From: Eremomyces bilateralis CBS 781.70
Lineage: Eukaryota
Assembly: GCA_010015585.1 (NCBI GenBank)
Contig: ML975189.1
DNA length: 64,000 nt
Reading direction: 5' to 3' (one strand)
In this document: positions 1 through 24,856 of the stretch, one piece after another
Numbering within the stretch: the stretch's first letter is position 1
How the letters are laid out: each line of letters starts with the position of its first letter
Notes under the pieces: generated by a model
The model's input: the letters and a program-made list of their open reading frames with translations, nothing else
Databases searched by the model: none
What the model was told of the DNA's origin: nothing
Made by a program: the position numbers and the translations under genes

Positions 1-375
1 AGGGCTGAAAATACAGTTGCAGACTTAGGAGGGCCTGCTGGCAAGAAAAGGAAACGGGTTCAGCCCAATCTGAACGAACGATTTGTTCAGATTGATCAGA
101 TTGTTGCGGCTTAGGAGGCAGCTAGGGAGAGGGAACAAACGCTTTCAAATTAACCCGGAGGAAACGTCTTAATAATTGCAGAAGGCAATTTTTAAGTCAC
201 TCTATCCACAATTTCAATTACAGCTATAGAAAAATATATGGTGGTGGTTACATTCCGCAAAATCCATTCGTCTTTGTGTCCTATTGGAGTTGTGGTGGGG
301 GTGCACGGAAACTGGGTCCGTTGACTTAGTGAAAATCCCTTATCTTTCTGAAAAGACTCTCCACTGATCGCGTAT
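1..375 (+). mobile_element. Decayed 3' end of a Fot1/pogo-type (Tc1/mariner superfamily) DNA transposon
   Basis: Frame +1 from base 1 reads RAENTVADLGGPAGKKRKRVQPNLNERFVQIDQIVAA*EAARERE. This resembles the C-terminal KRK.V..dpNe.F..I..I..AQ segment of fungal Fot1-like transposases, with an in-frame TAG at 112-114 where Q (CAG) is expected. A possible right end (...CCACTGATCGCG followed by TA) lies at ~361-375, but the partner TIR is outside the window. Confidence 0.55.
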
Positions 376-568
376 ATACAGAACCATTACCTGCTCTGAC
401 GCCACCTCCCAGACAAGAAAGGAAAATCTGCATCCCTGCGAGAGCACATGGAATATCTCGAGGCTATATCTTGGAGTGACTCTACTACTCTAAGCCCCGA
501 TGAACAAAAATCAAGGGCATTGTTTTGCTTCCGAAGAAAATATCTCGTGCTGCCCTAACATGCGCAGC

Positions 569-2195
569 CTACTTGCGCAACAGTATCTTGGTAGCCAACC
601 AAAGCCCCATGCAGGTAAGACTAGTAGTGAGAAGAACATGAGACAGACCAACGATAGCACCTTGCTCAAAAAATCCAAGATTCTGACCTTTCCTCTGCCG
701 TGGTGGGTTGAGCTTCTCCGCCGTCAGGATTGCCAACAAGTTGTTCTTTTGGACAACAGGGGGGAACGCTAAGATATGAGAAGGGATAACGGCAGCTGCA
801 GGTGTTCCGGTTGCTACGGGCCGCGCAGTGGAGTATAGCGATCCCGGAACCGCGGTGACAGGAAAATGATTTGCCGGAAGAAAGATAGATTGCAGAGGAA
901 TGCAGTTAATGTACGTGGCAGCCGCTGTGATGAACGAGGAGAGATATCGCGACTCCGACGGATTTCCGTACAAGAACAAATTCGTAAATCCTTCGGGGTT
1001 TAATTGGCCTGCTAGAGTGATGGTGCATTCTAAGCTGGTAGTTGGCATAACATATAACAACCTGGAGGGAGAAATGAATAGGTGTTCAAGTGATGGAAAG
1101 TATTCCCACGTCCTAGAGAGTCAGCAAAGATCACCTTTGAGAGGGTGAAGATACTTACTTCCAATTTGGGTCTCCAATCAACATGGTAACACCACCAGGC
1201 AGATGCAAGACACGGCCTGCATGACTCTCAAATATCAAGACCTGGTCCGGAGAGAGTTCGTTGGATTTCTTTAACCCCTGTTGGCTTCCGTCGAGACTGT
1301 TGCTTTTTTGTCTCATCGACAAAACTCTTAGAGTCTCAGTCTCGAACTCTCGCAGCACGAACTCGTCGATCAAAAAAATCGGTGTCGTAGAACTGGGTCC
1401 AAGGGTCGGCTGCACTGATTGGGCTTGAAGTATTTCCTCGGTGGCATTTCGAACTTGCGCGTGTCGCGTTACAACCACAATACTAGCCTCTGGAACCGAA
1501 GACAAAACTCGAAGAGTTGGGGTTGCTAACAGGAACTCGCTTTCTCGAAATATCGTGAGATGCTCTTCCAGTTGGGGGACAATCCCATTGAACCGGGAGT
1601 GTTTCAGGGTTGCAAGAATATTCACCGCATCTTCCTTTGACTCTGGGAAAACAATGGCAGTGGCCTCAGCATCAAGCGAAGATTGTTTGAAGACTTCCAG
1701 GAGCTCTTTGGAAAAGGTCGGGGTCGCTGCCGGCAAGAGAACCATTGTTGAATTGCCCGCTGCGATAGAACATGCGAGAGGAATAATGCTGGAGGCCAGC
1801 GGCAGAAAGGGATCGGCCAGAATCAGCACATTGCCCAAAGCACTATATCTATCTAGATCCTCAGCGCTCTTCTCAATCTCCCTTTCCCTCTTAAGGGTTT
1901 CAGATAGGCTCTGTTGTCCGAAAAGCTGACTAATTGTACGCAACACCACGATGATCTCGAGCAATGAATTGTTCACTCCTCGATTCGTATCTATGATCAG
2001 TTAGCGATCCCACCTAGTCAAGACAATTTAGAAGGGTCAAAAGTTACCCGACGAAATAGCATTGGTTAAACCCTGCGCATTTTGAAGAATGGCACGGTGC
2101 ATTGCCTGCAGCTCCTCCTGTCGTTGTGTAGGATTTTCCAGTCGACCTTCCAGCCTGCTACCGTCGAGCGCCACGTATTGCGAGATGATATCCAT
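569..2195 (-). CDS. Aldehyde dehydrogenase-like protein (ALDH3/HFD1-like fold) with degenerate catalytic motifs and C-terminal TM helix
   Basis: Three exons: 2195-2048, 1990-1159 and 1112-569, with GTAA../..AG introns. ALGNVLILADPFLPLASSIIPLACSIAAGNS resembles the ALDH PLGvvliI.pWNyP...aiAAGN segment. LTNLFLYG..ESRYLSSFITAAATYINCIP resembles the ALDH C-terminal region. Hydrophobic tail near the C-terminus. Confidence 0.75.
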
Positions 2196-2514
2196 GATCA
2201 AAGATGAACAATGTTCAAAGCGCAGGGGTTTATTTCTGAGGGAGTATTCGTTCAGGTTTTGGAGAAATCTTTCTACACACACGACGCGCAACGTCAGACA
2301 TCTGGTGTGGGATGCCCCGGATATGCGGGGTCCACCGCCCTACCCGGATATATGTGCTGCATGCTGATGTCGATTTGAGATTGCGACCACTCGGTAAGGA
2401 TCCAGAGTGGAAAAAGGTGAGTAACTCGATCATGGTGCTTCGAAGATCATGCCATTGTGTTCAGTGATTTTGTTGATTCTAAGGTAATCGTACCAGTTAC
2501 GATTAGCACATACA

Positions 2515-3530
2515 ATGCCGTCTGCTAAGTTGTCGCGTATGCTTTACCCATCCACCTCCGAAGTCAATTACTGATGAATTTTTAGATCCAACTCCGGTGT
2601 TCTTCTTCTCGCATGGCTCAACCATGATGTTGGGGGAGGACTCGGAGCCGGCGGCGTTCTGGAAACAGGCGGGCAATGAGGCGCTCCGACGAGGAGTTAA
2701 GAGCATTGTGATGATGGGCAAGTACGATTCCAGTCCAGGTGTCGCTCGATTTAACTGGCTGTAGGTGCCCACTGGGAATGTGTTGGCGATAAGATCCAGG
2801 TTGCCATGAGTCCGAGCCCAGGAAAGAATCCAGTATGCAAACAATTCAGAATACACGCAGATTCACAGACTAACTGCGTTAGGTGGCATACGTAAAGAGA
2901 GAACGATACGAGAACTTTAAACTGGTGCCCGACCTGCCCATGGGCGAACGTGTCCTTGAGATGCTCCGCAAAGGTGGTTTCAACGCTGAACCTAATCACA
3001 AGTTCAACTTTATCCATGACTCTTTCCTACTACTCATTCGCATGTTCGCTGAGCGCGGGAGTAATATCCCCACCGTCCTAGTGTCGGCCAATTCTCGGTT
3101 TGACCCGCACTTCCACGCAAAGATTGGCGTGGTGCTGCGTCCACTACGTTACGAGAACGTACTTCTGATCGGCTCGGGCGGCGCGGTGCACAATCTGTAT
3201 CGTAACCACTGGATGCAGATGGTCCTGTACCGTGACAACTTTGCTATGCCCCAGCCACCAGGGGAATTTGCTCTCGAGTTCCGACAGGCAGTCGAGGATG
3301 CCATCACGATGAACAGTGGACCAGCCTTGAGGCGAGCAGTTACTCGGTTGATGAAACACCCACGCTATCGGGAAGCGCACGGCACCGATGAGCATTTCAT
3401 CCCAATGTGTTTCATAGCGGGAGCTGCAGGAGACAAAGCAGACGAAGGAACGAAGAATGTTATGACTGCGGAGTGTTGGGAGCTTGTGGCCATGGCGAAC
3501 ACTCAATTTCAATTGGGTGAGTGGGTATAG
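2515..3530 (+). CDS. Extradiol aromatic ring-opening dioxygenase, LigB / 4,5-DOPA dioxygenase family
   Basis: Exons 2515-2536, 2586-2717, 2765-2832 and 2883-3530. Motifs FFFSHGSTMM, GAHW, FIHD, LRPLRYENVLLIGSGGAVHNL and AHGTDEHFIP carry the LigB/DODA metal-binding histidines. Confidence 0.9.
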
Positions 3531-3581
3531 AAAAATGGAAAATAGAATATCATTGTGCAATGCGAGCCGCTGTTGTGAAGC

Positions 3582-4066
3582 TCAGAATTCTCCTCCAACC
3601 TCATATCGAAACGCCCGATCGAACACCCGACCACCAGTGTTCCTCCATATTGCTGCATACATCTTTGCTTCAGTTAGCCGTCGGCCGAAATGCCCACTGA
3701 GGTTAGAACACGTACCGCGATCAGGCTGCAACCTGAGAAGGTCATCGACATCAGTACACCTATGACGAGATTTGCGCCGACTGGTCTGACTTCACGAACC
3801 AATTCGTGGTTGATAGGAGCATAGTCTGGCACCCGCCGATGTTGAGTGGACGGCCACCATGTCGGATTGGTTACCCCGGGAACTCCGGGGTGAGGCTCTG
3901 TAGTTGGATCGATCCGCTCCGCCTCGGACTGTACCGCAAGGTCGGCCCTGGCTTCCTCCACAACCTCTGAATCTCTATTTCCAGTCTGATGGATGGCATA
4001 GTCGCTTGCGATGAGCCGGATAGTGGCTCGATCAAGGTCTGTTGCTGTCGTGTTGAGTGTAGACAT
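3582..4066 (-). CDS. Small hypothetical protein with a hydrophobic C-terminal segment
   Basis: ATG at 4066. The ORF runs to ...NPTWWPSTQHRRVPDYAPIN...LVIGVLMSMTFSGCSLIA, then a GTACGT donor with a GCTAAC branch site, then a last exon reading ..AIWRNTGGRVFDRAFRYEVGGEF* (TGA at 3584-3582). The exact acceptor is uncertain. Confidence 0.65.
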
Positions 4067-4208
4067 TGTGTATGTGGCATGGACGGCAATTGTTTTGGGA
4101 TTTGAGTCAAGTTCATGGAATTTGGCACCAAGAGGTTGAGATCTCGAAGACGGGGGGTCGTGTCGCCCTAGCGTATACACCAAATGGTGTCCCCACAGAG
4201 CCGACCCC

Positions 4209-7147
4209 TTAAAAACTCCGCAAATCCGCCTGTTGACGTGACCAATCGCGATTTCGGAGTGTCGATAACCAATGCTCCAGGCCTTGGCTTAGACCCCAGC
4301 CACCTAAATCGTCCAGTAACTGCACACCAACATCGGCAATGCGGTACGATGCTCTCTGGCGACATATATTGCCGACATCGTTCAGATGAGCTCTAAAACT
4401 CTCATCGCCTTGAATCCACGCCTCCCTCCGTTGATCCAGCTCCCCGTCATCTAGCCGAATCACCGAACCACGTTCTCTGGCCCGGATACCGTGGGAGTAT
4501 GAGGGAGAGGAGACCACCTCGGTCATATGGCTGTAGGCCCAAATGGTTACCGTAGCCAGCGCAATCATGATGGGGGTACACGGGGCTTGGAACTTGAGCC
4601 CCTTCGACTTGCCAAGCAGTAATCCTGCATAAGAGACGGCACGCCTTGCCACGCAGCCATTTTGCTCCTTGATCCAGTGATCAATGACTTCTTTTGGCTC
4701 CTTCTCATGTTGCATGGTATTGCGGCGGTGCACATAACTCAGAAGAGCTTGCCTGGGGCTGCATAGAAGCATAGAAACACACAAGTTGTGGCAGTCCACA
4801 CTGGAGTTGAGCATGGACTTGGTATTGAGGGGGCCCGAATACCAGCCTTGAAGGAGGAAAATCGCTTCATTGGCTGAATCGTTAATAAAAGACCGCTCGG
4901 AAAGCGCATTGGAAACGAAGGGGTTTCCAGACAGGGTTCGTATCGTCCGTATCGTCCGGTAGAGAGCAAATGTGAGAATTAATCGTCCAAAATCACTGAT
5001 GTTTTTCGGAAGGGTTTTATTATTTCCAAGTTGGGCCAATGCCTGCTGAACGGTCAAATCATCGTCGTGGTCTGGGTTAAGTTTAGTGTTTGTTTCGTAG
5101 AACCAAGAACAGGGGGGGGATACTGTGCTGCAAGTATAAATTCCTCCACCACTCTGGAGAGGATGCGGCCCATAGGTCTTCAGAGCAGGGCAACAGTAGC
5201 TCTAGCTCAGCGAGAGATAGGTATGGCACCGCGTCAAAATACAGCTCATTTTGAGCGTCAATGAGCTATCTTCCTCAGTACTAGCAACATGCAAGGGCTT
5301 TGGGATACGTACAAAGGTACAGAAGCCTAGTCGTCGACGTGATTCATCTTCGATCCACTGCTGCCACTCCTCCTGGTAAGACTGCTTTTCGGTTATGGAG
5401 TCCAAGTTTAATACTCGTGTTGGCATTCTTCGGAGCACGCCTTTTCGACGACATTGAGTAATGCTTGCGTTTCGTCCACTCTCTGCGATTTCCAATAGCC
5501 TCCTATTTCCGGAATATGTCATTCCGACAGACCCGAGGAGAAGTGCTTGAGTAAACCACAGCTCTCGAGCATGCGAATTGTCCCCCTCGATCTTGACGAG
5601 TTAGCAATTAGCAAAATGCTGAGTTGAACCAACTTACGGCTGAGGCAAGTGATCGTCGGAGGAGCTCTTGGAGCGCGTTGGACCCTGTGGCAGCGTACGG
5701 TACCTTGGAGTATCGAAAGCCAATGGTTGCAGTAGCGAGCACCAATTGCCAAGGAGCGTTTCGTGGGTCAAAGGATGGTTTGTGCAACAGCGGGAAAATG
5801 GGATGGAAGTATTCGAAATATAGCTGTGTAAAACAATCAAACGCCTCGATCGAGGGTAGATTGGCGTTATGGAAAGGCCGAAAGAGGGATGATCCAACCC
5901 TTTTCATACTTTGATATATTTCATGGTACGCTTGTGGGCTCAGACTTTCAACATGACCAAAGCTTTCCGCCTCGAGAATGTCGAGGGGAAATTCACTCAT
6001 ATCGGGGAAAGAAACCAAGTTGTCGGACTTTGTTGGATCCCAATTCGTGGGCCATTCTCGTTCCAAATCTGCCTTTGCTTTAGGGCGATCCCCTAGCTTG
6101 CCTTGGTTTGTTGGACCCCAATGCCCCGTGATGTGGCCCATCGGGACCTGATGCGTAGGCGGATGTTGATCTGGAGGCTTGTACAGCTGGGACATTGGGA
6201 AGTCATTCTGACCGAAACCTGTGTCGTGCGAGGACCCGGGGTAGCCCAAAGTGCGGGAAGCGTCATATGCCATAGACGGCCCCGGATCTAAAAAACAGTT
6301 GTCGGTGGTAATCCAGTCCATGACAGAGAAGTCGCTGTCTCCATTCCAGTTGAAGTTCCATGTAGGCACGGCTGTTGATGGAATATCCCCAATACTTGGT
6401 CCGCTGCCAAAGAACGCCGAACTTTCAAGTGCATCCTGCGAGGCCTGCACGGATTCCTGCTGGGTATCGATCACCAACGGTTCCGAGGACGATAAGGGCA
6501 CCTGGTCTGTCAGATGCGATGGAAGCAGACTGGAGGTCTCGACGAATGTAGCCGTTTCATCCATGCGGACGGAGCGATCTAACGATGGAGGACGGCTCTG
6601 CAGTGAAGGGCGACGCTCGGAAGTGCTATACTCAACATTTTGGTCATCGCCAAGCTCTCCCGGGTCGCTTTCGTTCCCCTTGACGGGCATTTCCCGTAAT
6701 TCTTCGATGGTGGGAATACGCTTCCGTGATCTCCCTAAGTACATGCAGTTGATGCCCTTGGACTGGCAGCGAGCACACGGGGACTCTCCGTCGCAGCGAA
6801 GTCGAACCTTTCCACACTGGGCGCATGCTCGGCTAATGCGAATACTGCCTGGCTTGGAAGAGCTTCGGCCGGTATCTTCATGAATAGGAAGATGACGTAG
6901 AAGGGTGTCCCTGCGTGCAAAGTCAGAGACGGGAGAGATAGACGACCTATAACACGTTGACCTACTTGCGATTAAACGATTTGTGGCAGACGTAACATGA
7001 GTACGGTTTGCTCCCTGTGTGGGAGATTATATGACGCGATAGGTGCTCGAGACGCCCGAAGCCAGTATCACAAAGCGGGCACACATGAGAGCCGGAATTT
7101 CCCTTGTCCTTCGCAGGATCAGGCGCCGCCGGGGGCTGAGCATGCAT
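4209..7147 (-). CDS. Transcription factor with two C2H2 fingers, a Zn(II)2Cys6 cluster and a fungal-specific TF domain (Cmr1/Pig1-like architecture)
   Basis: Exon 1 reads [39 protein letters not shown]. After the intron at 6965-6911 it continues [10 protein letters not shown]...[28 protein letters not shown]. Later come [19 protein letters not shown] and [15 protein letters not shown], typical of the fungal TF middle homology region. Further introns at ~5637-5592 and ~5311-5265. Confidence 0.9.
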
Positions 7148-7368
7148 GCTACGTGCGATGATAATGTGCCCAAATCCCAGTGCGAAGAGCCAGAATCGAT
7201 GTTAATATATGGCGAGGAGCATTGCACGTCCTACTGCACATGACGACGGAGTTAGGCGTAGACAAAATCTTTAGAAACCCAAGAAGAGGAAAGACCATGG
7301 CCGGAAGTGATCGTCGACGTGGTGAAGGATGGAGATGGAGGCGAAAGTGACGTCCACTTCGGCGAGCT

Positions 7369-7400
7369 CTTCCCCGCGTCTTGCAGGGACCTTCCCCGCG
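7369..7400. promoter_or_regulatory. Paired CTTCCCCGCG direct repeat (GCGGGG on the - strand; fits the SYGGRG CreA/Mig1-type consensus)
   Basis: Identical 10-mers at 7369-7378 and 7391-7400 in the TF/monooxygenase divergent promoter. Confidence 0.4.
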
Positions 7401-8231
7401 ATCTTTAGGGTGATTGGACGTGAGTACAGCTTAAGTCGCATGTAAAACGTGGATGTTGTAGCCTTTGTAGGATGTGGAACCAGCTTAAGAGGGTCGTGTT
7501 AAAGATTTGGCGTGTATTGCCGCTAGTGGGCATTTGCTTAGGCATTTATTCCGGCATTTCCTCCGTCCGGTAGCTAGGGTGGCCTGATGAAGTGGGAACT
7601 ATCACAGCTATTAGTCCGAACATGGCGGGGCTATGCTTTCTCATTTCTTTCTTCTTTCCTCGGGTCCTATGCTAGTTAGCTATTCAATAAATTAGACTAG
7701 AACCAAGCAGATCTCCCTCAAGTACTGTGAGTCTGTGGCACTTCTTCCGCTGGCTATGCAATATTAATTAGGGGATGAAGCTCGGTTCTCGCAGATCTTG
7801 CAGCAAATGAGCTAAATCAACAACACTTAGTGTGTAACCTTAAATTAAGTTAACCTTTCTGGAAGTTAATTTCTTGTTAGGTTCTTTCACGATGTTAACA
7901 TACTCTTTGATTAGCCGCTTCGATCCTCTATTTCTCTCAATATCTAGTGCGATAGAGATGCTATATCAAGGCTCGAGCTTTTTCCTCTACTCCTCTACAA
8001 GGCCTTTGTATTCGAGACATCGGTCTAACGCGGCTGGTGAAACTTGTCTCATCCCCTGACCCCCGCACATCCGACATACTCCCACACATCCGATACAGCC
8101 ATGTTTGTACAAGTAGTCCTCGGTCGTGGAATTTCAAAATCGTTAGGTATGCCACAAAGCTGGTCAATTCCGGCCGCTGAAATCCTGGATCGTACGAATC
8201 CTGCTGCATGTTGCAGGAAGCCCATTCATCC

Positions 8232-9866
8232 ATGTCTGGATTCAAATTGATCGTCATTGGTGCCGGTCTGGCCGGATCGCTCCTCAGCAATGGGCTGCTT
8301 CAAAATGAAATCGACTTTATCGTTTATGAATCCGACCCCGAATCCGCCCAAAGGGAAGGCTATCAGATCCGGCTGGGGGCTCCAGCCATTGCTGGTTTCA
8401 AGGCTTGTCTGCAAGAAGATCAACTCACCAAGCTTTACCCCATGTTCGGCAGGTCAGGCGGCGTGATATCCTCCGCCCCTGCTCTCTACGACGAGAAGCT
8501 CAATCTGCTCCTAGATTTGCCCAAATTCCCGGCATACACTAAGTCGGCGCCCATAAATCGCGCAATATTAAGAGATTTTCTCGCGTCACCGGTTGCAGTA
8601 GCAGGCAAGATTCGATATGGCAGGCGTTTCGCAGGATACCGGTCGGTCAATGGCGCATCGGGGACCAAAGTCGTTGTCAGTTTTGATGATGGCTCCGAGG
8701 ATGAATGCGATCTCCTCATCTCCGCAGAGGGAACGAGCTCAAGGGTATGTAACGCCATCCTCAACCTTCATCGTATTAACTCTGGTGCGTAGGTGAATCG
8801 CCAAATCGGTCTCAACAACATTGTTCAATTGACGCGGCAATGGAACTTTTTGGCAAAGGGAAATCTTCCCCCATCGACTTTGCTCAAGCTCGGCCCGGAG
8901 ATACAAAGGGCGCCAATGTCCGTCCTCTGCAACGGCATGATTCTCTTCATCTCAGGTTCGTTTCGACAGTCCTCACGCAAAGGCGCCGCTAATGAATGGA
9001 CAGCATATCTTCCAGACGGATATAAAGATGAGCCTCGCTCTGATAAGGATGGTAATAAGAATTTGGATTACGATGCCGATATAGCGTCCATTTTCTGGAG
9101 CTTATCCGTCCCTGCGGACCGTGTGCCTAAGAACGGCGCTCAAGGCATTTCCAACAAGCTGGACTTTTGTGTGGACCAGATCAGGGATTGGGACCCTCGA
9201 TAGTACGTACGATGCTCTTTAGCATCATGCCTTCTGCTTACGGCCCTTAGTCACGACATGCTACGATCGATAGGGGAGGAATCCATCAACGTATTTCAAG
9301 CACGGGCGAGCAAAGAACCTCCCAAGCACTGGCGACAGAAGGTCAAGTCACCAGAGGATCCGAACTTGGGCAACGACCATGTTTGGCTGTTGGGTGATGC
9401 CATCCACTGCATGCTCCCTAGCAGGTGAGTTGAAACCATCTAGGTCTTCTCAAGGCTAACCAGATGGCAGGGGCATGGGTGGGAATCAAGCCATGTGCGA
9501 TACGGCAGATCTACTACCGGTTATAAAGAATCTAGCTCAGAAAGCGGAAGCAGGAGGGCTTTCGGACGAAGATTTCTCCATCGCCGTCACAGAGTACGAA
9601 AGTAGAATGTTTCCACGAGCATTTGGATGGGTTCGTACCAGTGGAGGGACCGGTGATAAGGTAAAGCAGATCCAAATTTCTCTGCCATCGCGCCCGAAAC
9701 ATGATGAGACTAATTGTGGTAGGGACCCCCTGAGATGTCTGGGATATCAGGGCGAATTTTGTTGTTCTTCATGGCGCGTGCCCTGGATCTTGCCTATGTG
9801 TACTCAATTGCCCAGCGACTATTTGGATACTCCCCCCCAGATGATGCACCGGAGTTGCCCAACTGA
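8232..9866 (+). CDS. FAD-dependent monooxygenase (group A flavoprotein, aromatic hydroxylase-like)
   Basis: Six exons splice in frame: 8232-8744, 8793-8955, 9004-9202, 9251-9424, 9471-9660 and 9723-9866. Motifs: IVIGAGLAG (GxGxxG), DLLISAEG (DG motif variant) and WLLGDAIHCMLPSRGMGGNQAMCD (GD motif). Confidence 0.9.
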
Positions 9867-10256
9867 TGCATCTTTCGTCATCCGGGTAAGTCAAAGGGAT
9901 ACAGAGTAACTCTAGCTTCGATTTGAAATCGCAATGCCGCGGTAGATTAGATTAGCATCAAATTCCGTCTTGACTGGCCATAAGTGTAACGGAACACTCA
10001 ATCAGATTGAGTCGCCTCTAACACAGGACAGGGGCCAATGGGACTCATCAGAATCAATTCCAGGGGTCACTAGGCACTGGACATGAACAATGGTTGAAAG
10101 GCTCATTCAAACTTCATCTAGACCTATCCTCAATATTCATCTATAACCGTCACCTGTACTTCATCAGGAGCATATCCTTCTCGAAACATCCCCAAGAGAC
10201 TTTGTACATGAAGCGATGTGAACTTGAGAGAAATTTCAAATAGACTCTACAGTCCA

Positions 10257-11942
10257 TCAAATGTGCCGTCTCTTAACCGTCACCATCATATCCGATTTGT
10301 AGAGGAAAAGCTTCAGCTCCTCGGTCCAGAGCCTGTTCAGATCTCGAGGTATAATGTCATATCTCCTGACCAGCTCAGCAATCGTCTTGAACAGCTCGAC
10401 AAAGGCAAGATTGCGTCCGATACATCTGAAGTGAAACTTAGTGGTTGTATAACAAGGATATGGCAGGTTGTCAAAGCACAAACTTACATTCTCGCTCCGT
10501 GGCCAAACGCAAACTCATAGTCCTTCATAAGTTTAGTCTTCGCATCGTCCTCTAACCATCTCTCTGGTCGGAATTTCTCTACATCTTTACCGTACAAGTC
10601 CGCGCTCCTACCAATGACCCAGTTGTTTACACCCACCTCCGTCCCCCCAGGGACGTAGTAGCCAGGTAAAATCTCCACACCTTGTTCGGGCGTTCTTCGT
10701 GTAAATGCTGCGCCGACCGACGGACTGAATCGAAGTGTCTCATTGATCACTGCGGTGAGATAGGGAAGTTTGGCCAAATCAGCATAGCGAGGGACTTGAT
10801 CTTGGGGTAGGTGTCCCTCTGAGTATGCAGTATCAATTTCCTCGCGAAGTTTGGAAAATACCCCTGGATTGCGGAGGAGAAAGCCGACGCAGCCAAGAAT
10901 TGACATGGCTGTCGTATCGCCACCAGCCACCAGAGCGGCAACAACCTCTCCCCGGACTTGATCTCGATGAATAGGAGAGCGGTCAGGATCCTTTGACGAG
11001 ATGATGGCATTCAGAAGATCTTTCTTCTCGCTCGGTTGCTTATAGCGTTCGCTAACGATGTTTGCTGCAACCTGTGGGGTAGTCAGCCAGTGCTCCTGAA
11101 ATCTCCGGTGCTCTTACCTTGAGTGCCAGGCCAATGCCTTGGTTGTCTGGAGGCTTCAAATACTTGGATAAAGGACCACTAAACAGCGTGCCGAGCGATG
11201 GCACCACCGAGAGAATAATAGCGAATACGTGTCCGCCCTGGAGCCCAGAAATGATCCCATTGGCGTCTATGCACGTCCTCAGACATCCAAATGATTCTCC
11301 AAAGGCTAGATCGCTGATGATATCGACTGTGAAGTAGTTGATCCACTTGCTGAAGTCAAAATACGACTCGTTTGCTGCTTCCTCGTCCAGGCGATCCTCT
11401 AGCTGCTGTACAATCTTATCGATCTGGTCCTCCATGGTCAAGATGGTGGTCATGGTGTACGCGCCACCCACCTTGCGGCGAGCAGACTGATGTGTCTGAG
11501 CATCGACGGCGAAGAAGATAGGAGGGTGCTCCGAATTGATGCCAATAGTGGGAAACGTGTTAGGACGGGAGAAGGAGTCCTTCCCGCGGCCGTAGATTAC
11601 CTTGATCGCGTGATAATCACTGAACGACAGCGAATTTGGTCCATCACGAACAACCGGGCCGTACGTTTGGTGTAGGTCCTGGTAAATCAAGTGCGCCCTC
11701 TTTGAATACTGCGCGTGCGTCCGCCAAAAGGGAGAGATTCTTGCCAATACCTGTCATCAGAATCAGCAGTCAAGATTGGACATGGGCTGAGCATTGAACT
11801 GTACCGGGCCCGGATATCTCGCGAGAGGGTGCAAGAGGATTCGATAACTAGATTTCCCAAGTAAGTAGATTCCAAAATAAATAATCCCATAACGCAGCAA
11901 ATGGTGCGCGAGAAATATTGTCCCCTCCAAAGACGCCGCCAT
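10257..11942 (-). CDS. Cytochrome P450
   Basis: N-terminal TM anchor followed by HPLARYPGP. I-helix AGGDTTA, ETLR and PERW are present. The heme motif FGHGARM|CIGRNLA is split by the last intron. Four exons. Confidence 0.95.
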
Positions 11943-12482
11943 GATATAGGTTTCAGCAAGTGACAGACACAAAGTTTGCACTCAGGCGTCTTAAAAGACT
12001 CATCCTGTTTACCAGCGTGATATCTACGAAGATATCGATTTCGGAGTTAGGCAAACCGGGTATGTTCATGCCTAGAGATGGGCATAATTTGCTCGGCTCT
12101 GTGGAGAAATCAAAGCAAGTTTTAATTACAAGGTAATAGGGAAGCACATTAGCGGGCCTAACAATGCCTGAGCACTCACCTTCCAGCACAGAAATATCGA
12201 TGACTCTCGATTTCCGGCGTGGATATGATTTCGAGGAGCACGTTTTCGAGTGGAAGACTAAGCCAACAATGGCATCAATCATGGACCCCGCTGAAGTGTT
12301 GCTGTCCAAGTTTCGGCTCCGCTGGGAGTTTGCGAAACGGTTTAGGGCTTAACATGATGTAGGCCATGCGTGTCCTGCATAATCGCCGCAAGGTCGTCTA
12401 GAAGCAAGAGGCTTAAAAATGGAGAAATATCCTTTAAGAAGACTGTAGATCCTAGAAGTGTGTACAGGTACTGCTTATCAGC

Positions 12483-13649
12483 ATGGACGGCTCAACACTA
12501 GAGTGGTCTGGTAAGAGCCTCTTCGAAAACTAGGGACCACAAGTCCAACGCTTGCTAATTCAATTTCAATAGGTGCAACGACATTTCGCCTGAAAACAAA
12601 AGGCTTATTAACGATCTTTCTGGATGCGTGGTTGGAGCGCCCTGCGTCTCTCGACCAGTATCTAAGCGTTGATGAGGTTGATGAATGTGACTACATTTTC
12701 ATCTCCCATGCTCATTTTGATCAGTAAGTCAGCCTCGGTATATCTTCCAGCGGCATTCTCATATATTTCCAGCCTGCCCAGTGCGGATCGGATTGCCAAG
12801 GAGACTGGAGCCAGTATTATTGGAATGGAGAGGCCATCCACGTCATGCGTGCGGTGGGAGTTCCGGAATCGCAGCTAGCGGCCATCTCTGGTGGCGAACG
12901 AATTCCCCTGTTCATAAAAGAGCAGCGACATAAGGTGATAGTTGCCTCTTCTTCGCGTCCCCATGGACTTCCCTCTGGACCTCCTTCTGGCCCCCCTGGA
13001 CCACCTACGCCAAATCCCGATGATGCGATTATCACGGTCCACGCTTGGCCATCTCTTCATGCATTGATGCCTCTTGGGGACCATAGGTCATTCCCAGAGG
13101 TGATGGATACCGGTACTGTGTATACCGGATCTGGAAGCCATAGTTGCACCCTGGACGTTACTCGCGGTTTGACGTACGGACTTGGAGGTCTCCTCAAAAT
13201 GGACTTAGTTCCTCCGCAGATGCATCAGGATATGAAAGACTTTGTCACGTACATGAAGGATAGGGACATGAACAGGTACTCATTTTTCGACGGCGGCCAA
13301 ATCATGTACAATTTTTTGATCGACGGCAAAGCGCTTCTCTGGAATGGGCACCTTGGCGGCTACGAAGGCATCCTAAAAGAAGAACCTGGTCCCAAAGCCC
13401 GATGTTGCGGTCCTTGCAATTGCCGGAAGGACCAACTTGGACGGGCGACCTTATGACGGGTCTGTGGCAGATTTTGCTGTGAAGGAAGTGCAATGGATTG
13501 GAGAACCGTCAAAAGTCACCTGGTGTCTGCATGATCGGTGTCCAATAAATCCAAAGCACATCAACGTTGCCATCGCAACGGAACGTGTTGAAGAGGGGAC
13601 AAAGAGCAAGGTGATCGAGCTAACACCTGCACAACCATTCAGGCTCTGA
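12483..13649 (+). pseudogene. Metallo-beta-lactamase-fold hydrolase interrupted by two frameshifts (pseudogene or assembly error)
   Basis: Spliced exons give MDGSTLEWSGATTFRLKTKGLLTIFLDAWLERP...YIFISHAHFDHLPSADRIAKETGASIIG, with the HxHxDH motif. The frame breaks at ~12822 (GGAATGGAGAG, one A short of GGA AAT GGA GAG = GNGE). It breaks again at ~13375-13382 before KNLVPKPDVAVLAIAGRTNLDGRPYDGS...WCLHD. Confidence 0.75.
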
Positions 13650-13674
13650 AGCTCGTGATACTTTTAATTCAACC

Positions 13675-14371
13675 AAATCTGCCACACAGTTCTCATTCAC
13701 ATACCAATGACCTCGTTCAATCATTATCAGCCAGATGAACGTCTGGTATTGATATTCGACGGCGGTGCAGAGTCAGATCCCGGGAGCAATATATTCGACA
13801 TTCGGCCTCGATCCTGGTGGAAGTCGTGGGCAATTGTGACGGAAGGTCCAGGTCCTATAGATCTTATCGATGAGAAATTACTATTCGGCGCGCGGCCAGA
13901 TACATACTCTGCCCTAAATAATCATCCCAATCCAGCCGATCAAGATAACTGCGAGGGGAGGGAGGTGGTCTCAGGACTGAATGGATTGTGGTCATGGATA
14001 GATCCCAGAGCGGTTTAGAGGGCTAGGGGCATGACTCCGGAACTAAAATAGAATAACTGCGCAACGCCATAACTTGACTCGATTTAATCCTCAGCTCGGA
14101 CGCGCTTGAGAAATGGAATAACCGAATTCGAGAGTCGATGCTCGACAGGGTCTGTATCATGGCTAAACCAGTCCTACTAGGATCGACGCTGGGTCTGGCT
14201 ATCACAGTTCCACCAAGTTCGACGGTCCTTCTCCTCGGGTGGTCTCCCGGTCCAAGTAAGATCAACGAAATGGTTATGAAGGGCCGCACAGCGCTCGAAA
14301 TCCATGCCCTGAACATCTCGCACGGGGTTTGATTCGGTGACAAGCTATTGTGTTGAAATATCGAGTTCCAT
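13675..14371 (-). pseudogene. Decayed fungal hypothetical gene with multiple in-frame stops
   Basis: Reads MELDISTQ*LVTESNPVRDVQGMDFERCAALHNHFVDLTW...RS**DWF...HRLSNSVIPFLKRV...; the distal part reads ..WLIMIERGHWYVNENCVA. From memory this resembles an uncharacterised fungal family (MDxERCAxLHN ... MxExGxWxVxExGV). The stops are TAG/TAA, reachable from CAG/CAA/TGG by single transitions. Confidence 0.55.
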
Positions 14372-17686: not shown

Positions 17687-17820
17687 CGCACTCGGTCCAG
17701 CCGCAGTTCATCCAGGCACAAAGGCACTAGAGCAGCAATTCCAGTCCCTCCAGGCTGTCAGGCACTCAGGTCGTAAGCCACCGGAGAATCCATTGATCCG
17801 AACCAAGCGCAGCCTGAGGA

Positions 17821-17900
17821 AGGCGAAAATGGCGAAAACGGCGAAAACGGCGAAAACGGCGAAAACGACGAAAACGAAGAAAACGAAGAAAACGAGGAAA
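17821..17900. repeat. 9-bp minisatellite (GGCGAAAAC grading into GAAGAAAAC), ~9 copies
   Basis: Seen directly; it produces the low-complexity ORFs listed at 17708-18012. Confidence 0.9.
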
Positions 17901-18249
17901 AGCCACACAGAATAGGCACAGAATGACAAAACACCCCTGCCAACTCAAGGAAACCCTCCCCCCCAACAGCGCAGCACCGAACCACCACCAAATCGTCCCA
18001 AATCAGCACCAAATCAGCACCAAATCAGCCAACCCCCGCCCCCCGCTCCCTCTCTCTTAGGCTCTCACCAACTAAACCTCCTCTCACTCGGTCGTTGCCC
18101 TCTAAACCGATTTCTCGCCTCCAATCAACATCCCACTTTTCTCTTCCCGCTTCCATCTTCACTTTCTTTCTTCCACTCCCCTCGTCTACTTCTGTCCTGT
18201 CCATTGACCCGTTGCTCCCCTCTACCTGTCCATCTTCTCATCTACCACC

Positions 18250-23033: not shown

Positions 23034-24856
23034 CTATGACGGCGACAGCGGATCGGATCCGTGGAGTCTCTGCGAGCGCTTCCTCTTATGCCGCTTCGTT
23101 TTCGATGGGGACACGATGGAAGTGGATGGTTCTGGTCCGAGCTTGCCTGAGGATAAAACGCTTTCGTTCATCCTGTCGCCATCCTGCGTTGATCGCCTCC
23201 GCTTCTTACTCTCCTTGCTCTTCTTGTGATTTTGTTTATGGCTATCGTGGGGAGTTATGTGATCCATATTTGTTTGCGTGGAGTCACCTTTCGTGTTCTG
23301 AGAGCTGAGCTGCTGGGGGACCACCGGATTCCCATTCTGCTCGACAGAGTTTCGGTCTACGGCTGCTATCAGTGCTTGAAAGCTGTCCGGCAAGTCCATT
23401 TCTGCTGGTTTGTCGTGCGGTTTGCGGTCGGTTACACCAACGATGGGATGGACTGGCAGCGCTGGTACGTGTCGCTTCAAGAAATGCTTGAGGAACGAGA
23501 TTTTGTGGCCATCGCAGCCCACGTCCGGACAGGTTTTGATCGTCGTCTCTGCGAGAGTTCCCTTCCACGCCTTCCGAATATGCCGAATTACGCTCTTGTC
23601 CACACCTCCGGCGTTCGCGATCAGCTCATTCAAGGTCTCGCTGCCCTCGATCCAGGCGTGCACTGCAGGGTAGTGCAACTCGGGTTCGTTCCGCAAAAAG
23701 GCGATCTGATCGCAGGTCGAGCGCATGAAATCCTCTATACTAACCCCATTCCAGCTGGCATGGATGAAGTCTAGTGAAAGATCCGATATTAGATATGGGA
23801 TGCTTACTGGCGAATCCAGATCGACCCGATATAAAAGACATCCATCCAGCGGGAACGCAAACGAAATGCATCCTCGCGGCATATACAAAGTCGAATCTCT
23901 CTTTTGGAACACAAGAACCCCATCTTCCAGACTATCAAACGAGTCGTCGAACTGCAAGCGACGTGATTTCTCAAAAAGCAGTCGGCAGACCTCAAGGTTG
24001 TGCCGATGAGGTGGATAAATCACCCACAGCAACCCCCCACGTTTCAACGTGACGAGCGCGGGGTTTCGAAGCCGTTCCCCGCTGATGTCGCCGTATTTGG
24101 AGAAGATCCCGACGCCAAACCGACAGCATCTCGCGAGTCCCCCGAATTGTTTGAGTAGAGGACAGTCGTCGATTTCCGATATACCCATCATTCCCGGAAT
24201 ATCAACCCAACCGAGCGAGCGGGCAAAGTCAGTACGTTCGTCGTGGATCTGAAGGATCAGCTCTGCAAGCTCCGTAGAACTGACCGTGGGGGCGCCGAGT
24301 TGCCATTCTCGTTCCTGCGGAATGTTAGTCGCTGGTTCAGTGGCGGTGGGATTAAACCGACTTTCTGGCCGGCTGCCACGGTGGCGGCGTCAAGAATTCC
24401 GGTCAGGATAATCTGTGACGATCTCGCATACTCAAGTATGGGGTCCCAGACACGTGCTTGGAACATGTGTGGGTTCTGATTTTCATTGTCGCCAAAAGGA
24501 CTTCCATCGGATCCATGTGAGGCTGATCCGGTCGACAATTCGGAGAGCGGAATGACGCTCGCGTTAAGGATAGGATTTGCAAAGGGTGAGTCTCGGACGG
24601 TAAGGTTGTACCTCTTGAGCACCATTTTGACCAACTCGCCCTTTGAAGCAGAAAGTGCCGGATCCGAACCACGCTCATCGGGAATATTTGCCCAGCGAAG
24701 ATCACGGAGGACTTTCAGTCCTGTAAATCGGCGCGGCGTCTCTCGTTTGGAATGGAGTTGGTGCATATGCATGCAATGTTCATGCTCCAAGCCGTGCCAG
24801 TGGCATCCTGAATAGACACAGCGTCTATACAGCGCTCCATCTGAATATGTTTGCAT
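23034..24856 (-). CDS. Hypothetical protein: degenerate JmjC/cupin-like domain flanked by two C2H2-like motifs, with a basic C-terminus
   Basis: ORFs 24889-24257 and 24191-23034 join in frame through a 47-nt intron at 24361-24315 (GTCGGT..CTAAC..GCAG). LLWVIYPP and VFQKRDSTLYMPRGCISFAFPL resemble JmjC strands. CVYSGC-x12-HMHQLH and CPDVGC-x9-HFLKRH are zinc-finger-like. The start is uncertain. Confidence 0.6.

Follow-up and report, generated by a model that had tools for sequence, protein, structure and literature searches.

What do the seven adjacent genes at positions 569 to 13,649 of a 64,000-nucleotide stretch of the Eremomyces bilateralis CBS 781.70 genome do, and are they complete as a unit? 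The stretch (hereafter the window; contig ML975189.1 of assembly GCA_010015585.1, G000:C41:16415-80414 in our coordinates, where C41 is that contig) comes from a fungus that we take to be a dothideomycete. An earlier note, made from the sequence alone, described the seven genes as a self-contained cluster for the degradation of an aromatic or xenobiotic compound. The block is instead the right part of an approximately 11-gene cluster with a LigB/DODA-type extradiol dioxygenase, split by one pogo-type transposon, to the left of which lie four further cluster genes. We consider it likely that the whole is an inducible cluster for the catabolism or detoxification of a plant-type aromatic compound, covering import, hydrolysis, hydroxylation, extradiol cleavage and processing, with a front end of an FAD monooxygenase (FMO), a cytochrome P450 and a metallo-β-lactamase (MBL)-fold hydrolase, the last of which has been lost.

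A LigB cluster split by a transposon

The transposase remnant reported on the left belongs to a pogo/Fot1-type element, of which it is the 3′ end; the genome has 9 matches (best 95%), and transposase frames are present in the related copies L001, L002 and L004. An exact inverted repeat of 17 nt links L007:1163, left of the window, with window position 329, and the element agrees with copy L004 at both of its ends. A CocE/NonD (S15) hydrolase gene stops 242 nt before the left repeat, and the right one is 240 nt from the stop of the aldehyde dehydrogenase (ALDH)-like gene; without the element, the two halves of the cluster would be about 480 nt apart. The left half (L006:800-8500 and L007:1-920) encodes a major facilitator superfamily (MFS) transporter, a salicylate-hydroxylase-like (SAH) FAD monooxygenase, a cupin and the CocE/NonD hydrolase; the SAH-like gene here lacks the acetoacetate-decarboxylase-like (ADC-like) domain carried by most of its relatives. 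Fragments nested between the inverted repeats are presumably hAT-like. Related pogo/Fot1-type copies occur on at least five other contigs.

The transposon end, the seven loci and the right boundary are as follows.

1..329, plus strand: 3′ end and right terminal inverted repeat of a pogo/Fot1-type DNA transposon (genome matches, transposase frames)
569..2195, minus strand: ALDH3-like pseudoenzyme, 507 amino acids, 3 exons, hydrophobic C-terminal helix (Aldedh E=6e-7; both introns spliced)
2515..3530, plus strand: LigB/DODA-type class III extradiol dioxygenase, 289 amino acids, 4 exons (PF02900 above cutoff)
3582..4066, minus strand: small orphan protein, 143 amino acids, 2 exons, one hydrophobic helix (intron spliced)
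4209..7147, minus strand: transcription factor (TF) with two C2H2 fingers, Zn2Cys6 and Fungal_trans, 912 amino acids, 5 exons, intact (Pfam; four introns spliced)
8232..9866, plus strand: group A-type FMO, 460 amino acids, 6 exons, intact (model; introns spliced)
10257..11942, minus strand: cytochrome P450, 507 amino acids, 4 exons (PF00067; heme-Cys, ExxR and PER intact)
12483..13649, plus strand: MBL-fold (UPF0173-like) hydrolase pseudogene (frameshifts near 12823 and 13380, stops between)
13690..14305, minus strand: stop-riddled frame, probably a gene relic, right cluster boundary

The order and orientation of the seven loci, with three divergent pairs (ALDH-like and LigB, TF and FMO, P450 and MBL) and the small gene on the minus strand between LigB and the TF, agree with the earlier description, as judged by Pfam matches on exons, gene models and, for six genes, skipped introns. 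Splicing was read from contigs of run X3, which come from one study and carry no expression level; since these contigs skip predicted introns, the run holds RNA. The contigs display 15 of 20 joints, namely the introns of the ALDH-like, LigB, small, TF and FMO genes and two introns in 5′ untranslated regions (2415-2494 and 7830-7880). LigB transcripts have all three coding introns and one 5′ intron removed; the intron at 2718-2764, of the GC-AG type, is spliced in an RNA contig. Between 8743 and 11802 an RNA contig is short by 414 nt, the sum of five FMO and three P450 introns, so that the P450 introns are accounted for by length. The observed joints and this length match together indicate that six of the window genes are intact and spliced. 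A frameshift considered in the TF near 5110 was rejected in favour of a spliced intron.

The claim of seven working genes fails at the MBL gene, in which the frame between the two frameshifts is full of stops. Contigs of three runs from two samples, two of the runs possibly being the source of this DNA itself, contain neither a gap nor a differing letter at the lesions, and an assembly error as their cause was rejected on this evidence. The public model (P0193) sidesteps both lesions by omitting segments that are kept in the ten intact homologs aligned, and an RNA contig spanning 11802-14600 retains both MBL introns, as far as contigs, which drop rare forms, can tell. This strain no longer has the MBL step; an intact paralog, P0280, lies elsewhere in its genome.

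A second copy on contig C2 (L091/L092, 1155500-1175499), canonical in its make-up, carries a TF, an ADC-fused hydroxylase, S15, LigB, MFS, cupin and ALDH-like genes, and no match for the small gene, FMO or MBL was found in that stretch. This raises the question of whether the C2 copy does the work while the C41 copy is a redundant paralog in decay. The MBL pseudogene, the transposon within the cluster, the gene relic at its right edge, the SAH-like gene without its ADC domain, a catalytic loop in the ALDH-like protein that is more eroded than in its relatives, and the intact LigB, MBL and FMO paralogs elsewhere in the genome would all fit such a loss. Yet six window genes are open and spliced, the upstream elements described below are retained in six of seven regions, and the two LigB copies share 62% identity and belong to different deep clades. 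We regard decay of the whole copy as decidedly unlikely.

The flanks agree in part with what had been proposed. On the right, Vps52, eIF5A and Rrn7 were identified by Pfam, which bears out the housekeeping neighbours of the earlier note; its right-hand pseudogene corresponds to the stop-riddled minus-strand frame at about 13690-14305, probably a gene relic. Plus-strand open reading frames (ORFs) in that region gave no Pfam match, and the one ORF searched had no paralog. GC content is about 0.49 over the cluster (window 1-14000) vs about 0.55 at 15000-64000, and at third codon positions it falls (GC3) from 0.70-0.90 in seven adjoining housekeeping ORFs to 0.51-0.61 within the cluster. We do not claim recent horizontal transfer: low GC3 extends to the ORFs that surround the C2 copy (0.44-0.71), and the LigB quick tree, built without a topology test, contains many paralog lineages. 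A tandem low-complexity repeat occupies 17760-17915, between Vps52 and eIF5A, and a minus-strand ORF of 451 amino acids at 23034-24389 has a possible JmjC-like region by eye.

Conservation of the core and a subtype with MBL and FMO

A metagenome scan confirmed 156 LigB relatives, of which the best 80 (50-63% identity) were used. Searched against these 80 loci, the window models found the TF in 37, the small gene in 23, the ALDH-like gene in 14 and the P450 in 8, the last at 28-32% identity and probably from other families; FMO and MBL were found in none. A second count used further queries, part of them drawn from the loci themselves, on 57 dereplicated groups with 22 representatives of at least 10 kb. 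Here the TF and cupin each occurred in 17 loci, S15 and SAH-like genes in 16 each, ALDH-like and ADC-like in 14 each, and the small gene in 10, followed by fumarylacetoacetate (FAA) hydrolase (8), MFS (7), a histidinol-dehydrogenase-like (HisD-like) gene (4) and P450 (4), with FMO and MBL again at 0. TF matches in both counts are homologs, with orthology not implied. The Pfam matches of 128 ORFs in 14 long loci agree with this core content. Gene order is shuffled between LigB loci, and in 14 of the 22 an SAH-like domain is directly followed by an ADC-like domain, a probable fusion (for example L008, L035, L053, L056, L064, L066 and L073).

The idea of a cluster that modifies aromatics, is conserved and has a regulator of its own stands in that homologs co-locate across several fungal classes, and falls in that the block described is half of a larger cluster. 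The hydroxylase and hydrolase had also been sought in the wrong genes, since the conserved ones are the SAH-like and CocE/NonD genes outside the window.

Where, then, do FMO and MBL belong? A quick tree was built from 53 LigB rows, namely one cluster member and a selection among the 120 listed matches. It groups the window LigB, in a clade of 12 rows (SH-aLRT 96), with metagenome proteins and with sequences from Talaromyces proteolyticus, Aspergillus pseudoustus and two Sporothrix species; the C2 paralog falls outside this clade. Among the best 120 matches listed, an MBL homolog lies near 5 of the 12 closest LigB matches; 5 of these 12 are on contigs shorter than 6 kb. By locus tag or accession, two of the five LigB and MBL pairs are _002658 and _002668 in S. 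bragantina and KAH8691284 and KAH8691279 in T. proteolyticus; the other three are joined solely by equal contig size (38,737, 94,546 and 147,890). The arrangement recurs in S. stenoceras (_002405 and _002396). In the named species the MBL is thus 5-10 genes from the closest LigB relatives. The five co-located MBLs that the MBL tree contains share a 17-row clade with the window MBL (SH-aLRT 99). The best of 520 FMO matches is S. bragantina _002670, 12 tags from its LigB and two from the MBL, and the third-best lies on a 38,737-nt contig. A subtype of the LigB cluster is thus defined by MBL and FMO near the closest LigB relatives in Sporothrix, and by MBL in Talaromyces.

The same data bear on whether the locus is two or three unrelated modules, the LigB core being a unit and FMO, P450 and MBL chance neighbours in an accessory island. 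The zero counts for FMO and MBL in the 80 loci suit this view, as do the co-location of only 2 of 9 FMO matches looked up (the other 7 showed none with a LigB relative) and a P450/MBL promoter that fits only the relaxed form of the motif given below. Against it, the closest LigB relatives of T. proteolyticus and two Sporothrix species have an MBL gene at a distance of 5-10 genes, and in S. bragantina two tags separate that MBL from the FMO. Chance association is the least probable of the explanations considered here.

The ALDH-like pseudoenzyme and its small partner

The ALDH-like gene model matches P0192 at 100%, and its nearest solved relative is ALDH3A1. Its reading as an active enzyme is not borne out. 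Cys of the catalytic loop (G-x-x-C-x-A-P) is present in none of the 25 loci with a readable loop, being replaced by P (17), L (4), S (2, one match being off-target), R (1) or V (1); GQTCVAPD of ALDH3A1, for example, aligns with GRSPYAPD in a relative, and the window protein has Ser/Thr at the catalytic position. In alignments to ALDH3A1 the general-base Glu (ELGG) and the cofactor-binding motifs are gone as well. The fold is kept, with TM scores of 0.66-0.70 between an Atlas model and ALDH clusters; the AlphaFold model is of low confidence (pLDDT 54), and all Foldseek rows displayed for it are ALDHs. A word-based search with the protein returned only itself, and the relatives were taken from LigB-anchored loci. 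Judged by these residues, we read the ALDH-like protein as a family-wide pseudoenzyme and not a dehydrogenase. Its C-terminus has a conserved G-x-FEQG motif followed by a predicted helix, which lies below the hydropathy cut-off, so that membrane anchoring is presumed. A HisD-like protein, encoded in L014, L024, L053 and L066 among the 22 loci, could supply the aldehyde oxidation that is beyond the reach of the dead ALDH.

The small protein has conserved W/P/R motifs and homologs in 27 of the 80 metagenome loci, and no meaningful family match in Pfam, NCBIfam, PDB or Atlas. In all 25 loci that hold both (not dereplicated), the ALDH-like and small genes stand head-to-head. The ALDH-like/LigB pair of the window is therefore a local rearrangement that breaks the pairing found in relatives.

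A precedent for an inactive enzyme homolog clustered with a Zn2Cys6 activator is offered by QutR, GaaX and TanX, which one study describes as presumed catalytically inactive, AROM-derived repressors beside the activators QutA, GaaR and TanR (PMC10512348). The protein described here differs in being ALDH3-derived, in its membrane-type tail, and in standing head-to-head with an orphan gene and not beside the activator. By analogy, we offer as a hypothesis that the dead ALDH may act as these repressors do, though it fails the defining features of their family.

Regulation, proposed pathway and known clusters

Are the genes under common control? G-rich 7-mers are over-represented in the LigB upstream regions of relatives (34 dereplicated regions, from 58 loci with enough sequence). 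Ten spacings were tested, and the sites of the window were already known when the spacing was chosen. The strict form, CGG-N4-GYGGGG, occurs in 8 of the 34 regions vs 0.45 expected (at most 2 in 200 shuffles) and its N3 version in 5; the relaxed form, CGG-N4-GYGGRG, occurs in 9 vs 0.83 expected. Upstream of the relatives' other cluster genes, the relaxed N3/4 form has a density of 0.53 per kb vs 0.09-0.10 per kb elsewhere. In the cluster of this genome, 6 of 7 upstream regions hold the relaxed form, vs 0.06 expected and none of 2000 shuffles reaching this, and 5 hold the strict form; the C2 copy has the element at three places. The genome-wide total is 1,901 sites in 26.9 Mb. The composite element is common to all four promoters of the window:

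2318..2330, plus strand: CGG-N4-GCGGGG, ALDH-like/LigB intergenic region, candidate TF site
4191..4203, minus strand: CGG-N4-GTGGGG upstream of the small gene; a GCGGAG variant starts at 4228
8061..8073, minus strand: CGG-N4-GCGGGG, TF/FMO intergenic region
12094..12106, plus strand: CGG-N4-GTGGAG, P450/MBL intergenic region (relaxed pattern only)

A CGG triplet next to a G-rich box suits a factor with both Zn2Cys6 and CreA/Adr1-like fingers. An 8-mer common to three of the promoters could not be distinguished from chance and was set aside.

The LigB model has the same length as P0472. We take His17, His54 and His245 to be metal ligands and His177 to be catalytic; through the relative P0003, which matches 4,5-DOPA dioxygenases and YgiD, all four align with 8in2. 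The plant 4,5-DOPA dioxygenase and Escherichia coli YgiD (8in2, 29ky, 2pw6) are thus of the same class III family, with the three metal His and the catalytic His kept, but distant (E about 1e-17 to 1e-14), and LigB has His-Asn-Leu where they have His-Pro. His-Asn-Leu is found at the catalytic His in all 15 aligned rows, whereas Pro after that residue is a feature of betalain-type 4,5-DOPA dioxygenases. In the FMO model the GxGxxG, DG (as an EG variant) and GD motifs are present, with FAD_binding_3 in relatives; a paralog of 50% identity lies at G000:C9:365775-366296.

Gene content, conservation and splicing, the pseudogene and pseudoenzyme status and the motif enrichment were observed; the reactions proposed next draw on family knowledge, and we infer their order, the substrate and the binding of the TF. 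The MFS transporter would move the compound, a phenolic ester, amide or lactone of plant type being the most likely. The CocE/NonD hydrolase would free an aromatic acid, the SAH-like monooxygenase convert it to a catechol, and LigB open the catechol by extradiol cleavage. The cupin would process the ring-opened product, aided in other copies by ADC-like, FAA hydrolase and HisD-like proteins. FMO, P450 and MBL may form a funnel that fits the subtype to another substrate, with the MBL step lost here. The C2H2 and Zn2Cys6 factor would co-activate the genes through CGG-N3/4-GYGGRG, and the dead ALDH and the small membrane protein would have a non-enzymatic role, probably in sensing or scaffolding. 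Of the pathway first suggested for the seven genes (hydroxylation, ring cleavage and hydrolysis under their own regulator), the regulator, the co-location and a common element are retained; the hydrolytic role of the MBL is not.

The same enzymes could serve biosynthesis without a backbone gene, in which a shikimate- or tyrosine-derived catechol would become a ring-opened pyrone or a pigment-like metabolite. The nearest solved LigB relatives are 4,5-DOPA dioxygenases of pigment biosynthesis, a P450 with two monooxygenases makes a typical tailoring set, and the ALDH-like protein could not oxidise a ring-fission semialdehyde. On the other side, LigB has the His-Asn-Leu and not the His-Pro of betalain enzymes (a difference weighed from general knowledge), and partners such as an ester hydrolase, FAA hydrolase, a HisD-like protein and a transporter suit breakdown. 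No backbone synthase domain was found by Pfam among the 128 ORFs of the 14 long loci. In the window, too, the earlier finding of no polyketide synthase, nonribosomal peptide synthetase or terpene synthase holds for 27 ORFs to 22848 (Pfam) and for ORFs of at least 150 amino acids at 20000-64000 (by eye), and the 8 ORFs of the left-side DNA, which that note had suggested inspecting, contain none by Pfam. We think a biosynthetic role improbable.

Several observations weigh against a catabolic cluster of this composition. FMO and MBL were found in none of the 80 metagenome loci, none of which is of the window's LigB subclade, and the 120 matches listed include no MBL for A. pseudoustus and Pseudogymnoascus, both close LigB relatives. 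Of the DNA between the transposon ends, 6,790 bases are N, which leaves room for a hidden gene. The strict motif is not enriched upstream of the relatives' non-LigB genes (0.05 vs 0.03-0.04 per kb). Neither form is present in the SAH promoter of this genome. The G-rich half of the motif resembles a CreA site, and CreA binds similar boxes. Moreover, DODA-type enzymes are known from biosynthesis (PMC12420386), and in Aspergillus niger deletion of the full set of 17 ring-cleavage genes did not prevent growth on gallic acid (PMC10512348), which indicates that fungal LigB enzymes are not necessarily catabolic for common phenolics.

While we continue to favour catabolism or detoxification, a bolder version may be stated, which we hold to be unlikely. 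It posits an uncharacterised fungal meta-cleavage pathway under a novel type of sensor, in which a tail-anchored dead ALDH, together with its closely linked orphan membrane protein, would bind a pathway aldehyde and gate the dual activator that recognises CGG-N3/4-GYGGRG. FMO, P450 and MBL would be swappable front-end parts that redirect the core to other plant compounds.

Among published systems, the closest by description is the aromatic ring dioxygenase (ARD) class, a set of clusters with a putative role in phenylpropanoid degradation, for which at least five models exist and which plant-associated fungi are enriched in (bioRxiv 10.1101/184242 and PMC10735191). Like that class, the present cluster has a LigB-type anchor (PF02900, with relatives annotated as aromatic ring-opening dioxygenases), at least four co-clustered homolog groups across distant fungi (here seven groups, each in 10-17 of the 22 loci), and a patchy distribution; in its readable DNA no backbone gene was seen. 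The assignment is made at class level, by description, and the published ARD listings may already contain this gene set; the MBL/FMO/P450 subtype, the dead ALDH and the upstream element go beyond the ARD description as we could consult it. In Bipolaris cookei, adjacent ALDH, aromatic ring-opening dioxygenase and S15 peptidase genes (Bc_04816/04818/04819/04820) are reported to be co-induced on sorghum (PMC5722872), a group that we liken to ours by annotation only and that also includes a galactonate dehydratase.

The FDB1/FDB2 clusters of Fusarium, with which the earlier note drew an analogy, are likewise of xenobiotic type, with an MBL-fold gene, an SAH-like gene, a TF and a transporter (PMC10512309); that lactam study does not, in the supplement consulted, list the LigB relative FVEG_10643. 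The analogy is weak: the MBL of this strain is a pseudogene with UPF0173 hydrolases as its nearest solved relatives, the cluster centres on LigB, and an arylamine acetyltransferase was not among the genes seen. The clusters described for tyrosine, gentisate and stilbenes (PMC3914699 and bioRxiv 10.1101/343673) differ from it. In the literature covered, from which subscription journals are mostly missing, we found no characterised pathway for this gene set and no report of the dead ALDH. The cluster type has already been described from genome surveys, not biochemically, and this copy of it is partly degenerate; the MBL/FMO subtype, the pseudoenzyme/orphan pair and the candidate cis-element are the additions made here.

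The literature treats the LigB-type extradiol dioxygenases of fungi as poorly characterised (PMC12420386), and little catabolic function has been assigned to them (PMC12420386 and PMC10512348). Annotation pipelines call the ALDH-like protein a dehydrogenase; given the family-wide loss of its catalytic residues, the pathway would be drawn differently, and a regulatory role is suggested. Since the regulator can be named, a binding element predicted and the gene set defined, this widespread cluster offers a direct handle on that pathway.

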